Origin: Saprospiraceae bacterium | GTDB taxonomy: Bacteria > Bacteroidota > Bacteroidia > Chitinophagales > Saprospiraceae | Assembly: GCA_020627865.1 (NCBI GenBank) | Contig: JAHDGC010000006.1 | Coordinates: forward strand, 1 to 28,728 | Reading direction: 5' to 3' | DNA length: 28,728 bases | In this document: positions 1-22,563 of the stretch, one piece after another | Layout of the letters: the number at the start of each line of letters is the position of its first letter | Position numbering within the stretch: position 1 is the stretch's first letter | The notes under the pieces: model-generated | Seen by the model: only the letters and a program-made list of their open reading frames with translations | Database searches by the model: none | Told to the model about the DNA's origin: nothing | Position numbers and translations under genes: made by a program

Positions 1-2941
1 GGATACCTTTTGCGGCAGCATCAGAATGTCTTTCATAAACAAAAGCCCCCAAATCACCATCATAATAACGAAGACTTCCGTCAAAATGCGGATAAGAATG
101 GAAGCCGACCACATCAAAGTAAGCCCCACCTTTGAACGGGTAATTTCCCGTAACAGAACCATCATCGGGGTTGTCCGAATTCCGCAACACCGCATCCAGA
201 AAACTCGGGAAACCAATACCGGAAAAAGTAATCATAGCGTCGGGGTCTACATGTTTGATGACCTCGTAGCTGATCCTCAACAGGCGTACCATATGGAAAA
301 CAGGTGCCCTTAATTTATAGTGGCACGGATCGGGATTATTGTCCCACCAGTTGCCTGGTTCACCGGGTCGGAGCCATCCCCTTTCTCCGGTGTAATCAAA
401 GCCGGGTTCGTTCCAGATTTCCCAGAACTTGATATAATCTTTATAAATTAAAGCAGTTTTATACAGGTATAAAGCATAGTAATTTTCATCATTGACGGGT
501 GTTCCATTTTCGCCATTATCCCAAATGTCTGCATAGATGCCCTCGAAAAGTTCGGATTGATAGCTTTGGCAATAATAAATCGGTTCCTTATGTTCTTCGG
601 AAGGGAAACCTACAATTACTGTGTTATCTTCCAGTCCCAAATTTTGATAATGCTGGAAAGTTGGCAAGCGTAAAGAGTATCCCCAACGCTCTAGAAATTC
701 CTCCGGCAAGAAAGGGCGCAATGCCTTGATGCCTGCTCCTTTGATGTCTGTCATATTGTTACCTGCTGCCAAATCTGCTAAGTCTTCATCCCGCCATTGT
801 TGGCCATAAATGCCGAGGTTGCAACCGGGGCGGAAAGGTTCATCGTACGGTAAAATAAAATCGTTAGCAGTCATAGTCAGTGCGGGGTCAGCAGGCACTT
901 CTGCGGTGATGGTTTCGCTATAGCTCACGGTGCCACATTCATTACCAACCGTTAATGTCACCAAGTAGCTGCCACTGGCTCCGTATACATGCATCGGGTT
1001 GGCATCCGTACTGGTAAAGCCGTCCCCAAAATCCCATTGGAAAAACTGGATACTCGGGTCTGTAATGTTATTAAAAACGACAATCGGGCCTGAAATCGCA
1101 GGCGTAAAGCTAACCGTCGGTTCCATTTCGATGTTCATACTACCGGTTTGTGCCGTGATGATCTCGCCAGATGCATTCCGGATTTCTAGGCTGACTTCAA
1201 AATTGCCGGGGTTATTGTAAGTAACTGCAGGAGCAGGATTAGAAGATGCGGCCGGAGTTCCCCCCTCGAAGTGCCATGTATAACTTGCTGCTCCCGGAAA
1301 AGTATTGCTTTGGTAATCAATAGAGACAGGAGCACAACCTTCAGCGACGGAAGTTTCAAAAATTTGATCTGTTAGAAATATGGGTGCGCCTGTAAGTTGA
1401 ACCCCTTGCGCAGAGACCATTTCCGCATCGGCTGTTGTCGCAAAATCCCACTCTCTTTTCAATAAATTATTCAAACCTAAGGCTGCTGGAAAATTGTACA
1501 CCGCGCTGGCTTCTTCAGATTCATCAATGGTCGTTTTTGCCCAGAGGACATAGGTGTAGTTTTGGTATTCATCATGGAAAGCTGCCCCTTTAATGTTATC
1601 CGGTAACTGTAAGGCTGCCGTTCTGGCCGGATCGTAGTCTTTCCAGAAAAGCAAATCGGAAGTTGTTTTGTAGCCGATGCCTTCTTCTGTCGGTTCTTGG
1701 AAATAAAGATTGTTGTATTCCATTTTTTTATAAAGCCCCATGGACTCAAACTCATCTATCACTTCATCGTAATCCCGTTCTTCTGCCAATTTGTAAACAT
1801 GAAGTTGGAGAAAATTACTTTTAACCGATTCTATGTAAGCTTTGATCAAAAAATTTCGCTGTACTTCATTGCCACCGATGTATTCCTCAACGGGTTTTCT
1901 AGGAATATTACACTCCGTAACGATCCAATGTTTTTCCGGATAGGTATTGCCATCATAACCATAGTTGTCCAATACCGCTTGCAGATCATCCTGCACATTT
2001 CCAATACCATCAGCGGCTGCATCCGAGTGCCGGAAGTAATCAAAATCCATAATGTCATTGTTCCAAGCTTTCAGACTTCCGTCAAAATGTGGATAAGCAT
2101 GGAAACCGACCACATCAATATACGCACCACCCTTGTGCGGGTATTCTGTATTAACACTACCATCTGCTGGATTATCCGTATTTCTGAGAATAGCATCCAA
2201 AAAACTAGGGTAGCCCACACCGGATACGGTTACATAACCATTCGGGTCAATAGTATGGATAATTTCATAACTGATTCTGAGGGTTCGGATATAGTGGAAG
2301 ATGGGTGCTCTGAGTTTGTAGTCGCAGGGATCGGGATTGTTTTCCCACCAGTTGCCGGGTTGGCCGGGGTCTTGCCAGCCGTGTGCCCCCGAGTAATCAA
2401 AGCCCGGTTCATTCCAGATTTCCCAGAACTTGACATGATCCTTATAGTTGGACACCATTTTATACAGATATAAAGCAAAGTAGTTTTCATCGTTGACTGG
2501 CGTGCCATTTTCTCCATTGTCCCAGATGGGTGTATAGAGATTGGCAAACATTTCGGAACGGATACCGGAACAATAAAAGCTTGGATCTTGGTGGGATTCT
2601 TTTGGGAAACCGATAATTACGGTATTTTCTTCAAGTCCGATGTCTTCGTAATGGTCAAAGTTTCCTTCAAAAAAATCATAGCCATATTCTTCCATAAAAA
2701 ATTCGGAAAGGGAAGGTCGGAATGCCTTGACACCGACACCGGGGACATCGAGAGCTTCATTTCCGGCCGCAAGGTTGGCCAGTTCTAATTCGGAGAAGGG
2801 CGGGAAAAAGCCAACATTAGAGGATGGGCGAAATTTGCCCGTGTAGGGTAAAACGTAATCGTTGGCGGTTTGTGTAATTTGGCTTTTGAGGACTATACCC
2901 GTAGAGAGTACAATAAGAATTGTACAGATAAAATTGTTCAT
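1..2941 (-). CDS. Secreted multi-domain glycoside hydrolase, truncated in this window. Start at 2941. Signal peptide, GH clan-A-like domain 1, PKD, PKD, GH clan-A-like domain 2. The open frame continues past position 1.
   Basis: Hand translation of the minus strand gives one uninterrupted frame from the ATG at 2941 to the window edge. It begins MNNFICTILIVLSTGIVLKSQ (signal peptide). Each catalytic-like domain has a WEIWNEPGFDY motif, resembling the NEP acid/base motif of GH5-type hydrolases. Two PKD-like segments are present (YTWHFEGG...NPGNFEVSLEI and WDFGDGFTSTDANPMHVYGASGSYLVTLTV). The ORF track misses it because no stop codon lies within the window. The plus-strand ORFs 26..313 and 1697..2473 are antisense artefacts. 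Confidence 0.8.
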   Translation of the reverse strand, partial: MNNFICTILIVLSTGIVLKSQITQTANDYVLPYTGKFRPSSNVGFFPPFSELELANLAAGNEALDVPGVGVKAFRPSLSEFFMEEYGYDFFEGNFDHYEDIGLEENTVIIGFPKESHQDPSFYCSGIRSEMFANLYTPIWDNGENGTPVNDENYFALYLYKMVSNYKDHVKFWEIWNEPGFDYSGAHGWQDPGQPGNWWENNPDPCDYKLRAPIFHYIRTLRISYEIIHTIDPNGYVTVSGVGYPSFLDAILRNTDNPADGSVNTEYPHKGGAYIDVVGFHAYPHFDGSLKAWNNDIMDFDYFRHSDAAADGIGNVQDDLQAVLDNYGYDGNTYPEKHWIVTECNIPRKPVEEYIGGNEVQRNFLIKAYIESVKSNFLQLHVYKLAEERDYDEVIDEFESMGLYKKMEYNNLYFQEPTEEGIGYKTTSDLLFWKDYDPARTAALQLPDNIKGAAFHDEYQNYTYVLWAKTTIDESEEASAVYNFPAALGLNNLLKREWDFATTADAEMVSAQGVQLTGAPIFLTDQIFETSVAEGCAPVSIDYQSNTFPGAASYTWHFEGGTPAASSNPAPAVTYNNPGNFEVSLEIRNASGEIITAQTGSMNIEMEPTVSFTPAISGPIVVFNNITDPSIQFFQWDFGDGFTSTDANPMHVYGASGSYLVTLTVGNECGTVSYSETITAEVPADPALTMTANDFILPYDEPFRPGCNLGIYGQQWRDEDLADLAAGNNMTDIKGAGIKALRPFLPEEFLERWGYSLRLPTFQHYQNLGLEDNTVIVGFPSEEHKEPIYYCQSYQSELFEGIYADIWDNGENGTPVNDENYYALYLYKTALIYKDYIKFWEIWNEPGFDYTGERGWLRPGEPGNWWDNNPDPCHYKLRAPVFHMVRLLRISYEVIKHVDPDAMITFSGIGFPSFLDAVLRNSDNPDDGSVTGNYPFKGGAYFDVVGFHSYPHFDGSLRYYDGDLGAFVYERHSDAAAKGI

Positions 2942-13323: not shown

Positions 13324-13422
13324 AAAATAACATTATTTTTTCATAGACAAAGTCACTTCTTCTGTACATAAAATGTAAGAATAAAGGCATACAGGCATAA
13401 TACTATATGCCTTAATAAAGCA

Positions 13423-13596
13423 TTAATGTGGACGCTCACCCGGCGCTACCATTCCCCAAATAATTGGAGGCTCAAGGTCAATAATCGGATCGTCTGAATT
13501 TCCACCTTTAATTTGCTGAATTTCATTTTCGAGCAAAGCTTGCTTTTCGAGTGCTTTCATTGCTTTCGCGATGATTGCTTTAGCGTTGTTTTTCAT
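13423..13596 (-). CDS. 57-aa double-glycine-leader peptide (bacteriocin/pheromone-type precursor). Leader MKNNAKAIIAKAMKALEKQALLENEIQQIKGG, core NSDDPIIDLEPPIIWGMVAPGERPH.
   Basis: This is a hand translation of the minus strand and is not in the ORF track because it is shorter than 60 aa. Its LxxxEIxxIKGG matches the double-glycine leader consensus cleaved by C39-peptidase ABC exporters. It lies 68 bp downstream of the HlyD gene on the same strand, and a stem-loop (aaggcata...tatgcctt) follows its stop codon. Confidence 0.6.
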   Translation of the reverse strand: MKNNAKAIIAKAMKALEKQALLENEIQQIKGGNSDDPIIDLEPPIIWGMVAPGERPH

Positions 13597-13664
13597 CTTA
13601 AATAAATTTTAAGTTATCCTTCATTTATTTAAAGTAGCTGAAGGAATCCCTACCTATATTTTCA

Positions 13665-14798
13665 TTAACTTTTTACCGTATTCATAATTGGAATAAACCG
13701 CCCTAGCAGTCTATGCTTTCTCGTGATAATTTCCCCAACGCCGGATAAATCCTGTTGATACGAAATACCAATATTGTAGCTGCTCACTAATTGTTGGGGC
13801 AAAGCTACTTCTACCCGATATGTGTTGTTGTCATTTGGATTCTTCGAGATCGCCGAAATCTCTCCCTCAAGCATTCCAAACTCCAACTCAGGGTATCCCG
13901 AAAGTTTAATGTTAACTTTTTGAGCAGGAGCCAACTTCCTCAGTTGTACAGCTGGCACTTCCAACATCGCTACATATTTCGATGATTGTTCAGGCACAAT
14001 TGTAATAACAGGTTTGCGTTTCTTTACTTTTTGTGTTTTACCGAAATTAATTTCCAAAATATTCCCGCCTATATCCGCCAGAATAAGGTGCTCTTTTTCC
14101 CATGTTTGCACAGCAGCTTTCAGATAATTAAAATCTTCTATAACTTTTTTAAAATAACTCAGGTGATTTGTTTTATTGCCCCCACTGGCTACGGCCTGAC
14201 TGTATATCTGATTCCGCTTTTCTTGAATTTCTTTTTCATGCAACAGGTACTGAAAATAACTTTCTTCAAATTGTGCATATGCTGTTTGAAGATTACCTAA
14301 GGTAAGTTGTCCGAGTTTTTGAAAAGCAAATTCAAAAGCATAAGAGTTGAGTTGAACGGCATCTACTTCTTTTCGTAAGCGCATAACATCCTGATAGTTG
14401 GCATTACTTTTCAGCACAATTAAAGGAGTACCCTTCTTCACCAACTGTCCCTTTAGCACCAAGAATGTTCCGATCTCATCGGCAGGTTCCAGAAAAATTT
14501 CCTGTGCTGGAAATTTATTAACAATAGTTGCCTCAGCAGAAACGACATCGGGATATTTCACAAACCATGCTATGGCAATCATCAAAAAGATCAAAGTAAA
14601 AAACAATATGTTGCCCCTGCGAATCATCCAATGAGGTACAGCAGTCAGGATTTCTTGTACATTTTCTTCCCGCAGTTGAAAAGGTTCTTTATCCTTTTGC
14701 TTAATCGCATCAATATCTAACGATGGATCAATATTTTTTTTGGGAATCCGGATGGTTTGCCCATTGTCTAACTCAATAGTTACATAATTATCATCCAT
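13665..14798 (-). CDS. HlyD-family membrane fusion / secretion adaptor protein.
   Basis: The 377-aa protein has a single N-terminal TM segment (ILFFTLIFLMIAIAWFV) and a long coiled-coil plus beta-barrel region typical of type-I/bacteriocin export adaptors. It starts 6 bp after the ABC exporter gene. Confidence 0.8.
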   Translation of the reverse strand: MDDNYVTIELDNGQTIRIPKKNIDPSLDIDAIKQKDKEPFQLREENVQEILTAVPHWMIRRGNILFFTLIFLMIAIAWFVKYPDVVSAEATIVNKFPAQEIFLEPADEIGTFLVLKGQLVKKGTPLIVLKSNANYQDVMRLRKEVDAVQLNSYAFEFAFQKLGQLTLGNLQTAYAQFEESYFQYLLHEKEIQEKRNQIYSQAVASGGNKTNHLSYFKKVIEDFNYLKAAVQTWEKEHLILADIGGNILEINFGKTQKVKKRKPVITIVPEQSSKYVAMLEVPAVQLRKLAPAQKVNIKLSGYPELEFGMLEGEISAISKNPNDNNTYRVEVALPQQLVSSYNIGISYQQDLSGVGEIITRKHRLLGRFIPIMNTVKS

Positions 14799-17077: not shown

Positions 17078-18142
17078 TTAAACGATTTCGGTTTTTAGGG
17101 ATTGCTTCAGATTGTTTTCGCTCCATGCCTTCCATTCTCCGGTATACGGATTATACCCACATTTCAGTGGTTTACTTTTGTCATTAGAAGAATCTACAGT
17201 AAAGGCACGACAATCTGTGCAGATATACCGGAACTCACAATCCTTACACACTTCAACCTGATCTTTATTCAGATTCCAATACTTTTTGAAACGCGCATCC
17301 TTTATCGCATCCCTCAGTTTTATGGTTTCAACATTACCAAAAGATTCTGGCATTGCCGGGCAATTCCGGATTTCCCCCTGCTTATCAACAGACACCTTAC
17401 CGTTCAGGCAAGTATTGTGTTTTTGGGCTTCGGAAAATGTTTTAAGATGAATAGAGAAAAATGCTTTTTCAATGACCCCACAACTCTTTTCAGAAACCAC
17501 TTTACTTGCCGTATGAATCAGGTATTTGGAATGACCTACCGGGTGGATATGTTTTCCATATGGAGAGTCATAAATATTAACCGAGTTCATCCGTTTATAA
17601 GCCTTGAATAAGGCTACAAAATCTTTATTCTCATTTTTATCCCAATACGGCAAAATGAAATCTATCCCAATGGAATTTGACTGTATGCTATCCAAATAAT
17701 CTAATATTTCCCTGAGTTCATCAACACTGGTTTTACGATAAAATCGCATTTGAACAAACCTGCAATGTAGTTCACTTAGTTGTTCCAAAACGGCCTGTAG
17801 ATCAAACGAAGAACTTTCATCAAAATCAACAATAGCGTTAGAAACCTCTAGGGGGTCTTCCCATTCAAGATTCATTTCCGGAAAAAGTTCAGGTGTATCC
17901 GTTAAAAAAGCAAACTCATTATCCAGTAAGATATTGAAATAGTTATCAATAATTTTATCGTATTTATTTTCATACGCCGCCTTGATTTCGGGGATTGATT
18001 TTCCCTTATGGATTGTCAACACGTCATACAAATCCGTAGGAATCTGGATGTAATTATGTCTTTGCAAATCACAGATGATACTATTCTGGGCACCTTTTAC
18101 AGGAATGCAATTTGCGTAAAGTAAGCACACAGCATTTTTCAT
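17078..18142 (-). CDS. SPASM-domain protein (grasp-with-spasm-type peptide maturase). No canonical radical-SAM CxxxCxxC motif is visible.
   Basis: The C-terminus carries a SPASM-like Cys array: CLNGKVSVDKQGEIRNC (Cx15C with Gly) followed by CKDCEFRYICTDC (Cx2Cx5Cx2C) and a final CGYNPYTGEW. The N-terminal 250 aa contain no CxxxCxxC triad. It sits between the ATP-grasp gene and the exporter gene. Confidence 0.65.
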   Translation of the reverse strand: MKNAVCLLYANCIPVKGAQNSIICDLQRHNYIQIPTDLYDVLTIHKGKSIPEIKAAYENKYDKIIDNYFNILLDNEFAFLTDTPELFPEMNLEWEDPLEVSNAIVDFDESSSFDLQAVLEQLSELHCRFVQMRFYRKTSVDELREILDYLDSIQSNSIGIDFILPYWDKNENKDFVALFKAYKRMNSVNIYDSPYGKHIHPVGHSKYLIHTASKVVSEKSCGVIEKAFFSIHLKTFSEAQKHNTCLNGKVSVDKQGEIRNCPAMPESFGNVETIKLRDAIKDARFKKYWNLNKDQVEVCKDCEFRYICTDCRAFTVDSSNDKSKPLKCGYNPYTGEWKAWSENNLKQSLKTEIV

Positions 18143-18354
18143 TGGAAACTGATTATTTTTGAAATAGGTTTATATAATTGTTGGCTGCTCACATTATCGC
18201 TTTGATAGCTACGGGCCGACAGTTTTACCTTGTTGGGTACTTTAGGCCTGTTTGTCACTTTTGCCATTTGTAGTGTAATGGGGAAAGCCCCAGAGACATC
18301 TTTGAGTTTAAGTTTTTTCATCACATAAAAATTTTGCAATAGCCCTTTCCACAT
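18139..18354 (-). CDS. Candidate small ORF (71 aa, or 60 aa from the internal ATG at 18321) that fills the gap between the ATP-grasp and SPASM genes.
   Basis: The gap would otherwise be 165 bp. The ORF's TGA stop overlaps the SPASM ATG as ATGA (ttccaATGAaaaatgct). From the internal start it reads MKKLKLKDVSGAFPITLQMAKVTNRPKVPNKVKLSARSYQSDNVSSQQLYKPISKIISFQ. I recognise no family, so it may be spurious. Confidence 0.25.
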   Translation of the reverse strand: MWKGLLQNFYVMKKLKLKDVSGAFPITLQMAKVTNRPKVPNKVKLSARSYQSDNVSSQQLYKPISKIISFQ

Positions 18355-19354: not shown

Positions 19355-19477
19355 TTATATTGGGTATAATTCCAATGTTTCTGTATCTAGAATATCAGTA
19401 CGACCGCAAGTGTATACTAATTTTCCACCAAAGATTACTTCTGAATTGTTCAATTCAAATTTTTCAAAATTTTTCAT
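19355..19477 (-). CDS. RiPP precursor peptide 1 (40 aa): MKNFEKFELNNSEVIFGG / KLVYTCGRTDILDTETLELYPI.
   Basis: Hand-translated from the minus strand. It ends in TAA at 19355. The core is rich in Thr, Asp and Glu, as graspetide ester/amide-forming cores are. It has a GG leader end and lies immediately upstream of the ATP-grasp gene. Confidence 0.7.
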   Translation of the reverse strand: MKNFEKFELNNSEVIFGGKLVYTCGRTDILDTETLELYPI

Positions 19478-19607: not shown

Positions 19608-19730
19608 CTAGATTGGGTAAAGCTCCAATGTTTCTGTGTCAACGATGTCCGTACGGCCACGTGTGTACACTAACTCACCACCAAAGATTACCTCAGAGTT
19701 ATTCAACTCAAATTTTTCAAAATTTTTCAT
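19608..19730 (-). CDS. RiPP precursor peptide 2 (40 aa): MKNFEKFELNNSEVIFGG / ELVYTRGRTDIVDTETLELYPI.
   Basis: A tandem paralogue of peptide 1 with an identical leader and three core substitutions (K19E, C24R, L29V). The shared downstream sequence indicates a gene-plus-hairpin duplication. Confidence 0.7.
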   Translation of the reverse strand: MKNFEKFELNNSEVIFGGELVYTRGRTDIVDTETLELYPI

Positions 19731-19845: not shown

Positions 19846-22563
19846 TTAAAAATCATATTTCAAACTCCCGAGAAAATACCTTGATTGGATGAAATATTCA
19901 TTTGTACTGATCAAGGCATCAGAGAAAAAATCTTGCCGAATAGACTTTGTATCCAACAGATTCAGGCAGGCAATTTTAAACTCAAACGGACTGTCCTTCT
20001 TCTTATAGTAAAGTTCAGCATTTAAAAGATCATACACCCCAGAGGTTGCCGAATCCTTACTCTTATACCAGTTATATTCATAATCTGCTACAAGAATAAA
20101 ACTCTTCAGAAACGAAACTTCTATATTCATAAAAGGTCGGTTTGTAATATACTGCTGACCTGAAACTACATTGTTACCGTAACGATTTACAATATATTTA
20201 AAACCAACTTCCAGTACAGGAAAATTATCTGCTACAGTCTCTATGCTACCCACATACCGTTGCGTAAAACTATTGTTAAATGTAAGTTCATTATCTTCAA
20301 ACAAGCTATTGTATTTGGCATAAGACAAATTCGCATTTACATCCAATTTAAGAAATTTAAATCGTCTTTCATATGCCCCTAGGACTGATAGAAAATCATT
20401 GGGTTCTCCAACATTCACAGGGATAGAAACCCGCTCAAGTCCATTGTATATGATCCGTGTATTGATGTGGTCATATTTTTTCTGAAAAGACAGCATGCCG
20501 TATATATTCGTAAAATTGAATAAATTTAGGGAAGAATAATTCAGGCTCAGGTTATGGTACCAAGCATTATTCAAACTTGAATTCCCATAAAATAAATCAT
20601 TGTAATCCCTAAGTACACTATTTTGAGCATACTGCTGAACATCAAAAAACTCTGCTTGTATCGAATAATCCAGCTTTAAAGAAATAGACTTCCGAAACTT
20701 GTATTTGGCATTAAAATATGGCAACATTATATATTTACTGAAACTTTCCGTATTTCCCAACTGTGTATTTTCAAGTTGGAACCGGTGGAAAGTCAGCCCA
20801 GGGTTTATGGTCAATTTACCAATTTTCGACTTCGCACCTAGCCCTATAAAAGCATCTTGAAATTGATAAGTAACATTATTATTCAAACCATCTTCCCCAA
20901 AATCTACATCTTGCCCTCCTCTCATTTTTTGCAGCAGTCCCGATTCTAACTGTTGGTTGCTGAAGGTATATCCTCCTGTAAAATTCAGATGATTAGTCTT
21001 GTTCAAGATATAGTAATGATTCAGTGTAAAATCCATCTTATGGGTATAAATCCTGCTATCTTGAAAAAGATTGTAAACGGTATCGGTATTCAATGGAATA
21101 ATATCGGGAAAAAGCTGTTCTGTTGTTGCCAGCGCATAACCCGTTTTTTTATTGTTATACTGCTGACTAAAACCCAGCACGGATACGTTCTTGTCATTCT
21201 CATTGTAAAACACGTCCACTTTTTGTCGGAACGCAGGCACCACAATACTATGATCTGCATCAAAAGCTCTGGTATCAAAATCACTCTCAGAGCGCAACAT
21301 TTTCTGCTCCGTGGTTTTATGATGCTTGAGCATAAAATCATGCTCTATATGCAAATCTGGATGCGGTGTATATCTCGTGTTGAACTTCAACATCCCAGTC
21401 GCAGTACCTTGTTCATTTGTTGAAATTAAACGCTCGCTATTATTTCCCTGACGAATATACAACCTGCTGGCCTGATCTTCAATCAAGGATGTTAAATCAG
21501 AGGCTATCGCAAATCCAGAGAACGCTAATTTACTGTTAGGATTCCAAGTAAAATTAAATGCACCTACCTTTGCATCCATATTTCTAGCTTTATTTTCCTT
21601 CATTAAACCTAACCCTAATTCATCTGAGGAAAGTTGCATGGACACACCCGATTTTTTCCCTAGATTATTAAGCCCACCGTTAAAGCGGAAATAATCCTGT
21701 ACCGAGAAGACCTGTTGGCTAATATTATTTACATTGCCGATAAAGTTAATACTGACTTTAGGCCTAAAGTAAAATACATTCGCATGACCAAGGTATCTTT
21801 TTTCGGGGCCAGCCCCTGCCTCAGCAGAACCAAACACGATATTCTGTTTGCCTTCTTTCAGCCTAATATCTATGGCCAACTTATGATCTCCTCCCAAGCC
21901 ATTCATCGGAGTAAATGAATTGTTATCGTTGAATAAATTTATCTTATCCACAACATTAGCCGGAATATTATTGGTAGCCAGCTTCGTATCTCCTGTAAAG
22001 AAATCTTTTCCATCAACAGTCAGTTTATCCACCTTCTCTCCATTCACTTTAATCTGACCGTTTTCCCCGACTTCAAACCCTGGCAACTGCTCAAACACGT
22101 CTTTAAGTTTGCGCTCCTTTCCCGTTGTAAAAGCCTCGGCCCTATAGCTAATAGTATCCCCAGAAACCGCAACAGGTAGCTCGTATACTACAGTAACTTC
22201 ACTCAGGTTATTAGCAGCGGGTTGCAATACAATGGTTTTAAATCCGTACTCTCTTGTTAGGTCTACTATTTCACTCCAATCCTCGTATCCCAGATAACTC
22301 ACCTTTAGCAAGTAGCTCGAATCCTGATCAAGTTCAATTTTGAAACGGCCTTCACTATCAGTTATGGCAAAGGAACGAATTGGTCCATTCTCTTCGGTAA
22401 GTCCAATAACATTGGCAAAAGATAAAGGTTCCTGTTCCGTGTTATAAACAACACCTTCTACAAATACCTGCTGTGCCTGTACAACTCCCGCACTCCACAA
22501 AATTAAACAGATCAAGGGGAATAGGCTCCTGAATACTAATATGTTCGTTTTATAATTTCTCAT
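19846..22563 (-). CDS. Outer-membrane beta-barrel protein, TonB-dependent-receptor-like with an N-terminal carboxypeptidase-regulatory-like domain.
   Basis: The 905-aa protein has a signal peptide (LICLILWSAGVVQAQQ) and a CarbopepD_reg-like beta-sandwich (VEGVVYNTEQEPLSFANVIGL...SEGRFKIEL). A long beta-rich region follows, ending in an aromatic terminal residue (..LGSLKYDF). Confidence 0.75.
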   Translation of the reverse strand: MRNYKTNILVFRSLFPLICLILWSAGVVQAQQVFVEGVVYNTEQEPLSFANVIGLTEENGPIRSFAITDSEGRFKIELDQDSSYLLKVSYLGYEDWSEIVDLTREYGFKTIVLQPAANNLSEVTVVYELPVAVSGDTISYRAEAFTTGKERKLKDVFEQLPGFEVGENGQIKVNGEKVDKLTVDGKDFFTGDTKLATNNIPANVVDKINLFNDNNSFTPMNGLGGDHKLAIDIRLKEGKQNIVFGSAEAGAGPEKRYLGHANVFYFRPKVSINFIGNVNNISQQVFSVQDYFRFNGGLNNLGKKSGVSMQLSSDELGLGLMKENKARNMDAKVGAFNFTWNPNSKLAFSGFAIASDLTSLIEDQASRLYIRQGNNSERLISTNEQGTATGMLKFNTRYTPHPDLHIEHDFMLKHHKTTEQKMLRSESDFDTRAFDADHSIVVPAFRQKVDVFYNENDKNVSVLGFSQQYNNKKTGYALATTEQLFPDIIPLNTDTVYNLFQDSRIYTHKMDFTLNHYYILNKTNHLNFTGGYTFSNQQLESGLLQKMRGGQDVDFGEDGLNNNVTYQFQDAFIGLGAKSKIGKLTINPGLTFHRFQLENTQLGNTESFSKYIMLPYFNAKYKFRKSISLKLDYSIQAEFFDVQQYAQNSVLRDYNDLFYGNSSLNNAWYHNLSLNYSSLNLFNFTNIYGMLSFQKKYDHINTRIIYNGLERVSIPVNVGEPNDFLSVLGAYERRFKFLKLDVNANLSYAKYNSLFEDNELTFNNSFTQRYVGSIETVADNFPVLEVGFKYIVNRYGNNVVSGQQYITNRPFMNIEVSFLKSFILVADYEYNWYKSKDSATSGVYDLLNAELYYKKKDSPFEFKIACLNLLDTKSIRQDFFSDALISTNEYFIQSRYFLGSLKYDF

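Follow-up and report, generated by a model that had tools for sequence, protein, structure and literature searches.

The DNA analysed here, 28,728 nucleotides of a Saprospiraceae genome (contig JAHDGC010000006.1, referred to as the window), encodes a peptide of 57 residues, and its open reading frame was confirmed as a genuine gene for a double-glycine (GG) leader peptide. The peptide is a precursor of a small, previously undescribed family, which is characterised by a helical leader of about 30 residues ending in K/N-G-G and by a short hypervariable core. The constant neighbour of this family was shown to be a soluble protein with eight cysteines (the Cys-rich protein), not an exporter or a known maturase. 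The gene, the family and its coupling to the Cys-rich gene, taken together, are held with high confidence. Double-glycine leader peptides as such are well known; new is a coherent family of them whose sole constant companion is a protein family without a name, domain model or structural relative. In the literature searched, neither the peptide family nor the Cys-rich family was found to be described.

The peptide gene and its family

The reading frame occupies positions 13423-13596 and, by direct translation from its ATG start (13596 to 13423), yields the leader MKNNAKAIIAKAMKALEKQALLENEIQQIKGG followed by the core NSDDPIIDLEPPIIWGMVAPGERPH and a stop codon. The original prediction, made from the letters of the window alone, had placed the gene correctly, and its strand is the minus strand. 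The leader shows the features of the double-glycine type (consensus LSxxELxxIxGG): glycines at -2 and -1, hydrophobic residues at -4, -7 and -12 (I, I and L) and an acidic one at -8 (E); position -15 is a non-hydrophobic lysine. The pair G31-G32 is invariant in all 12 aligned relatives. A hidden Markov model (HMM) of the leader, trained on 13 related peptides with the window peptide left out, picked out this frame, with 37.4 bits and E=6.6e-11, from the 819 segments of a six-frame translation of the window; the runner-up segment had E=0.63. The frame is short, and a word-index protein search with the 57-mer returned only its own sequence (a collection entry with NCBI as source, bearing neither name nor accession), as might be expected if the frame were open merely by chance within an AT-rich spacer. 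This reading is excluded, since an independent leader HMM finds the frame uniquely, and its probability is practically nil: the frame, length, start and GG are kept over diverged DNA at 11 loci (codon differences in the leader: 445 synonymous, 810 non-synonymous), and the synteny with the Cys-rich gene is conserved as well. The conservation of the frame among relatives, by which the original prediction could be judged, was thus found.

The family could be opened up because synteny was followed through the Cys-rich gene. Fifteen related peptide genes were found across 11 distinct loci which, where named, belong to Saprospiraceae-type metagenome-assembled genomes (MAGs), among them CBDICS01 and CALFBG01. 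An exhaustive phmmer search against 1.84e9 representatives gave one further true relative (P0123) and one spurious repeat protein. Two scans of metagenome contigs with peptide alignments returned only already known loci, so this GG-type family appears to be rare in metagenome contigs. The leader consensus is MKK..KK.IIKKALDALKKQAL.D.EL.Q.KGG, and the invariant positions of the family alignment are M1, A12, A15, L16, Q19, G31, G32 and, in the core, G48, which lies within W47-G48-M49 of the window peptide. Hydrophobic residues at -4 and -12 are kept in all relatives, with an offset of one residue at locus L008. Pairs of peptides are on average 53% identical in the leader against 12-23% in the core, with the break exactly at the GG, and the leader/core boundary predicted there is shown by the family alignment. 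The claim of a double-glycine leader thus held for the GG and the -4 and -12 residues of all 15 related genes; as to the conservation of both GG and core, only the former is invariant, and the latter keeps no more than a Gly-hydrophobic element.

The core of the window peptide is acidic, Pro-rich and Cys-free, as had been described: it contains five Pro (20%), no Cys, one Ser, no Thr and no Lys, together with Asp and Glu, and has a net charge of about -4 and a pI of 4.1. The computed monoisotopic mass of the unmodified 25-mer (NSDD...ERPH) is 2767.36 Da. Related cores are 13-36 residues long, have net charges from 0 to -6 (13 cores) and are never cationic, and many of them are Pro-rich or Gly-rich. 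Their sole invariant position is a Gly followed by M/L/F/Y plus a hydrophobic residue (IIWGMVAP, ITWGLVVP, KTWGMHDG, DGMWWP, AGMWTP). The pattern G-[MLFYI]-hydrophobic, defined post hoc, occurs in 13 of 13 cores; in 20,000 shuffles it occurred in 2.8 cores on average and in 9 at most. The combination of a conserved leader, a hypervariable core and multiple genes per locus, typical of precursors of RiPPs (peptides made by the ribosome and modified after translation), was found, with two genes at locus L090 and four at L095. The latter, a contig of 2.1 kb that carries P0123, holds its four GG-type genes in tandem (Table 1), with near-identical leaders and unrelated Pro-rich cores.

Table 1. Positions of the peptide gene, its flanking elements, other features of the window and the tandem array at L095
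Feature	Position	Strand	Remarks
Leader of the 57-residue peptide	13596..13501	minus	codons 1-32; ...LLENEIQQIKGG, ends ...IKGG
Core of the 57-residue peptide	13500..13426	minus	codons 33-57; 25 residues
Stop codon of the peptide gene	13425..13423	minus	from translation
Hairpin, candidate terminator/attenuator	13413..13384	minus	11-bp stem, 8-nt loop; 9 nt past the stop codon
Weak sigma-70-like match	13606..13633	minus	TTTAAA-16-TAAAAT; hlyD-peptide spacer; possible promoter of the two-gene module
Soluble Cys-rich protein, 140 residues	12901..13323	minus	Cys at 8, 65, 70, 78, 100, 106, 117, 120
HlyD-family membrane-fusion protein	13665-14798	minus	PF13437 E=3.8e-11, TIGR01843 E=2.9e-11; ends 68 nt 5' of the peptide gene
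C39-peptidase ABC transporter, 746 residues	14805..17045	minus	N-terminal C39 domain (about residues 1-150); PF03412 E=1.8e-33, TIGR01193 E=1.7e-122
SPASM maturase	17078-18142	minus	TIGR04193, 356 bits
Two near-identical 40-residue peptides	19608-19730 and 19355-19477	minus	MKNFEKFELNNSEVIFGG followed by [E/K]LVYT[R/C]GRTDI[V/L]DTETLELYPI; directly 5' of the ATP-grasp gene
L095 tandem peptide genes	5-142, 587-766, 1107-1304, 1672-1833		GG-type

The Cys-rich protein and its partners

The Cys-rich gene adjoins a GG-type peptide gene in 10 of the 10 loci where the contig allows this to be seen, and the GG-type leader is found only beside the closest homologues of the Cys-rich protein (at least about 57% identical). 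The protein has about 135 residues and no hydrophobic segment, and carries the motifs KCxxSGCKQWTGxKCGVI, LPxCxIRxxCRW[YF]xQ and ACxxCxLVxT. In an alignment of 120 sequences seven Cys as well as R60, W73, R103, R107, W108 and Q111 are invariant, and C8 is kept in at least 90%. The family forms 936 clusters in a collection of 5.8 billion proteins, none of which has a Pfam domain or any name beyond 'hypothetical', and has 163 matches in GTDB species representatives. It spans Saprospiraceae, Chitinophagaceae, Rhodobacteraceae, Mesorhizobium, Actinomycetes, Chloroflexia and a Thaumarchaeota MAG. Comparison with Pfam, NCBIfam, PADLOC and the sequences of the PDB gave no match; a confident AlphaFold2 model (predicted local distance difference test score of 86.2) matched no fold and had no PDB relative. 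Judging from the alignment and the model, the protein appears to be folded, conserved and enzyme-like, and its invariant residues are of the kind found in metal sites and active sites. It is probably a Zn or Fe-S protein; with eight Cys, Zn2 or two Fe-S clusters would be expected.

The original prediction had mentioned the Cys-rich gene only as the target of read-through from the peptide gene, past a stem-loop without a U-tract. The gene pair proved to be the one conserved feature, and the hairpin is present. Its tail, UAUUCUUACA, has a moderate U content, for which reason a consensus scan calls it terminator-like. The 102-nucleotide spacer between the two genes is more stably folded than its shuffles (z=-3.2), and about 9 of 13 related peptide genes have a hairpin within 60 nucleotides of the stop codon. 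The peptide gene usually lies 5' of the Cys-rich gene. At L093 it lies 3' of it (727-1131, 1200-1352), and at L090 peptide copies flank it on both sides (806-949, 1230-1649, 1920-2051). As gene order is not fixed, read-through from peptide to Cys-rich gene is no general requirement. A sigma-70 scan of the hlyD-peptide spacer region gave four sites against 3.3 expected, which is not significant, and Bacteroidota promoters differ from the consensus used.

The Cys-rich protein has a second type of partner. At 73 of 80 genome loci across several phyla a different protein of about 75 residues (HMM E<1e-3), here called the long type, is encoded ahead of it on the same strand. This protein has a conserved N-terminus reading F-x-V-x-L-D-G-h-x-L-S...I-Q-x-A-V...L-A, carries a Gly-hydrophobic motif (such as FPREWYGIILHP or GPIIWGIIARP) in 66 of 72 sequences and matched no curated family. 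The GG-type and long-type partners share genomic position and the Gly-hydrophobic motif; homology between them is not claimed. No third gene is conserved around the 80 loci, where a search for one brought up clade-specific synteny and generic ABC ATPases only. In an Amylibacter-type genome (L085:6533-6997, also L086, L087 and L022) a protein of 154 residues is a fused tandem duplication of the long-type partner, holding two units of F-x-V-D-L, helix and Gly-hydrophobic motif.

Possible function and alternative readings

Functionally the peptide is like a precursor of the double-glycine leader type and is most similar to the TIGR04149 'GG-Bacteroidales' peptides, precursors of radical S-adenosylmethionine (radical SAM) RiPPs. 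These are likewise short Bacteroidota peptides that begin with MKK and have a helical leader ending in KGG and a variable core, and among curated models TIGR04149 scores highest with relatives of the window peptide (22.2 bits with an L090 peptide). All scores remain below the cutoff of 25 bits, however, the window peptide itself has no match, and the TIGR04148/TIGR04150 radical SAM partner is absent, the partner here being an unrelated 8-Cys protein of about 135 residues. The sole radical SAM-related protein of the window is the SPASM protein of a graspetide cluster, which scores 22.5 bits with TIGR04150 (E=4.8e-5) against a cutoff of 250 bits. No curated GG-leader model (among TIGR01847, PF03047, TIGR04149 and PF14406) scored above its cutoff, either with the window peptide (NF033214, 11.9 against 50 bits; PF14406, 13 against 25) or with its best relatives (TIGR01847, 13.3 against 15.7 bits, besides TIGR04149). 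The matches below cutoff are restricted to GG-leader families, namely TIGR04149, ComC, TIGR01847 and class IIb bacteriocins. Precursors with Nif11 or NHLP leaders, such as prochlorosins, have a long conserved leader ending in GG, hypervariable cores, several precursors per maturase, a transporter that is often encoded elsewhere and export by C39 ABC transporters. The family described here follows the same logic of leader, core and multiple precursors, but has no similarity to the Nif11/NHLP models, its leader has only about 30 residues, and its partner is not a LanM, a cyclodehydratase or a radical SAM enzyme.

A possible course of events can be proposed. The cytoplasmic Cys-rich protein would bind the precursor and act on the Gly-hydrophobic motif of its core; a C39-peptidase ABC transporter, here the one encoded next to hlyD, which would also serve the graspetide cluster, would then recognise the double-glycine leader, cut after the GG and export the anionic 25-mer. 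The hairpin past the peptide gene may set the ratio of precursor to partner transcripts, and the two genes may be an undescribed peptide-processing module, complete in itself, which came to lie at the 3' end of a 'grasp-with-spasm' graspetide cluster. From adjacency only, we infer that the C39 ABC transporter, in which the catalytic-type motifs QADAKDCGPTC, NHFVVL and SDPA can be read, is the leader peptidase and exporter of the 57-residue peptide in this genome. The whole chain of binding or modification, cleavage and export we consider about equally likely to hold and to fail, and the role of the Cys-rich protein as maturase of the peptide is plausible, though we would place it somewhat below even. 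If it does modify the peptide, a new RiPP class would result, possibly with new enzyme chemistry and with the smallest gene set, a precursor plus an enzyme of 135 residues; if it does not, the pair remains a cross-phylum system of two proteins without an explanation, and its GG-leader variant gives experiments a way in, with a short peptide, tandem natural variants and, in this genome, an exporter next door.

Several observations weigh against this proposal. The Cys-rich protein resembles no known enzyme, maturase, RiPP recognition element or fold. No C39 transporter was found within view at 10 of the 11 loci, so that for the family as a whole cleavage and export can only be inferred. The long-type partners, at the 73 of 80 loci mentioned, have no GG leader and no peptidase or transporter nearby, and for this pairing an intracellular partnership of two proteins may fit at least as well as a pair of maturase and substrate. 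Homology between the GG-type and long-type partners was tested and has no statistical support, the best hmmsearch score being 8.3 bits (L008) and the hhalign probability 0.8%.

One alternative reading is that the peptide is not exported at all and serves as an intracellular subunit, chaperone or regulator of a Cys-rich metalloprotein, its GG simply ending a helix. The pairing of the Cys-rich gene with a small non-GG protein and the missing adjacent transporter speak for it, as do the Gly-hydrophobic motif common to both partner types, the few long-type proteins that also end their N-terminal helix in GG (L009, L051) and a weak alignment, at the 8.3 bits given above, between the long-type helix and that of the leader at L008. 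A subunit, however, should conserve its interaction surface, and in 15 of 15 peptides the GG and the hydrophobic positions -4 and -12 are invariant and all that comes after the GG is hypervariable. Tandem arrays with unrelated cores typify secreted or RiPP precursors rather than subunits, the only matches below cutoff are to GG-leader families, and the window gene abuts a C39 exporter that seems catalytically competent by its motifs. We regard an unexported partner as quite improbable. Another reading takes the peptide as secreted without modification, after cleavage and export by the C39 transporter, as a pheromone of the ComC/BlpC kind or an atypical anionic bacteriocin, with the Cys-rich protein as an intracellular regulator, sensor or immunity-type partner. 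In common with streptococcal ComC/BlpC pheromones the peptide has a GG leader with weak similarity to a ComC model, a mature part that is not cationic and, in the window, a gene placed after those of C39 ABC transporter and HlyD, as in blp and com loci; its anionic core is also unlike those of pore-forming bacteriocins. LytTR regulators adjoin two related loci, directly 3' of the Cys-rich gene at L089 and, together with a PF06580 histidine kinase, directly 5' of the peptide gene at L098. Yet profile searches across the whole contig of 28.7 kb gave neither a histidine kinase nor a response regulator, and none is present at 9 of 11 related loci. As Bacteroidota are rich in LytTR systems, the two adjacencies may be due to chance. 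The ComC models also score far under their cutoffs (for the window peptide 11.9 against 50 bits, as given above, for a relative 16.3 against 20.4 bits), and the deeply conserved cross-phylum 8-Cys partner is cytoplasmic, has no counterpart in com or blp loci and is unlike fast-evolving immunity proteins or known pheromone receptors. The pheromone role favoured by the original prediction thus has no more than a hint in its favour, the LytTR genes beside two of 11 loci, and lacks a kinase or response regulator in the window, and secretion without modification is, in our view, unlikely. The blpAB-blpC-like placement did not hold up as a trait of the family: tblastn with the C39 ABC, HlyD, SPASM and ATP-grasp proteins of the window against the fetched loci found none of them near the other loci (10 of 10), so that the adjacency of peptide and exporter or maturases is unique to the window.

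The position of the gene also invites the reading that the peptide is a second substrate class, a further graspetide precursor, of the ATP-grasp/SPASM maturases, as the original prediction had offered. The gene lies on the same strand and in the same cluster, Asp and Glu are present in the core, and loci of this kind ('branch 5') often carry several dissimilar precursors (PMC8939145). The leader is, however, unlike the MKNFEKFELNNSEVIFGG of the two 40-residue precursors in the cluster, the core could supply a single Ser to ester or amide cross-links, as it lacks Thr and Lys, and the ATP-grasp and SPASM genes never co-occur at the 10 other loci, where the Cys-rich gene always does. The claim was not upheld, and such a role is highly unlikely; the tempting misreading of the peptide as a component of the surrounding cluster is corrected. 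The cluster hosts the gene and is itself a normal member of its branch (the ATP-grasp protein with 232 bits for TIGR04192, besides the SPASM score), but the 57-residue peptide and the Cys-rich gene stand outside the described set (PMC8939145) and occur elsewhere without the cluster. Class II bacteriocins differ by their cationic, amphipathic or hydrophobic mature peptides with a dedicated immunity gene, and the contrast drawn with them in the original prediction is supported by the neutral to anionic charge of all related cores. The peptide belongs to none of the graspetide, ComC/BlpC and class II bacteriocin families, whose defining features were tested and not found.

On the reading of the peptide as a substrate of the Cys-rich protein, the pair might be a secretion-adapted Bacteroidota form of a widespread two-gene module, with the 8-Cys protein as a new peptide-modifying enzyme and the GG peptides as a new RiPP class; this view is tentative. 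The wider module would possibly, at a similarly speculative level, join a small Gly-hydrophobic partner to an 8-Cys metalloprotein of novel fold in Bacteroidota, Alphaproteobacteria, Actinomycetota, Chloroflexota and a Thaumarchaeota MAG. That the two-gene module represents a new RiPP class or a new metalloenzyme is a real possibility, though less likely than not.

The two loci with LytTR genes show further features. L098 (1-1440, 1758-2504, 2946-3107, 3207-3623) encodes the PF06580 kinase with a Y_Y_Y domain, the LytTR regulator, a peptide with the core NPIGKTWGMHDGDDDGGTLSDPD and the Cys-rich protein. At L089 (2-709, 1640-4762, 5672-5872, 6002-6391, 6750-7469) the peptide gene is flanked on one side by genes of a LanB-type lanthipeptide dehydratase and an Rce1-like protease, and on the other by the Cys-rich and LytTR genes. 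The core of its peptide contains Cys, Ser and Thr (IIGCPSCPPILLGLVVNDDPPTDFPYLSTF), and L089 may be a hybrid lanthipeptide locus.

The graspetide cluster of the window

The contig has a GC content of 39%. The minus strand of the window carries a Bacteroidota 'grasp-with-spasm' graspetide cluster whose 3' end is convergent on obg. In the order of transcription the cluster starts with genes of a 140-residue protein of no known type, a GLPGLI-family protein and a CarboxypepD_reg-type protein of 905 residues, and continues with two 40-residue GG peptides, the ATP-grasp protein, the SPASM protein, the C39 ABC transporter, HlyD, the 57-residue peptide and the 140-residue Cys-rich protein. Apart from the last two genes, this set is that of 'branch 5' graspetides as described by Makarova et al. 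2022, consisting of TIGR04192, TIGR04193, C39-ABC and HlyD proteins (PMC8939145). The two 40-residue peptides are presumably the graspetide precursors; they gave no Pfam or NCBIfam match.

A CarboxypepD_reg-type outer-membrane protein is encoded at L001 (6919-9309), just 5' of the peptide gene, as well as in the window (19846-22563), 5' of the graspetide precursors. The two proteins are not detectably similar by tblastn, so their shared placement is probably a coincidence. The N-terminal half of the SPASM maturase has no canonical CxxxCxxC radical SAM motif and, as read from its residues, only C6, C12 and C24, and the protein looks like a SPASM-domain protein without a radical SAM core. A reading frame of 71 residues (18139-18354, minus strand, with an internal start at MKKLKLKDVSGAFPITLQ...) shares its first part with the ATP-grasp gene's end and stops at the start of the SPASM gene. 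It had no Pfam match; in branch-5 loci this position is occupied by small accessory proteins of the 'LPL family' or PqqD-like type (PMC8939145).
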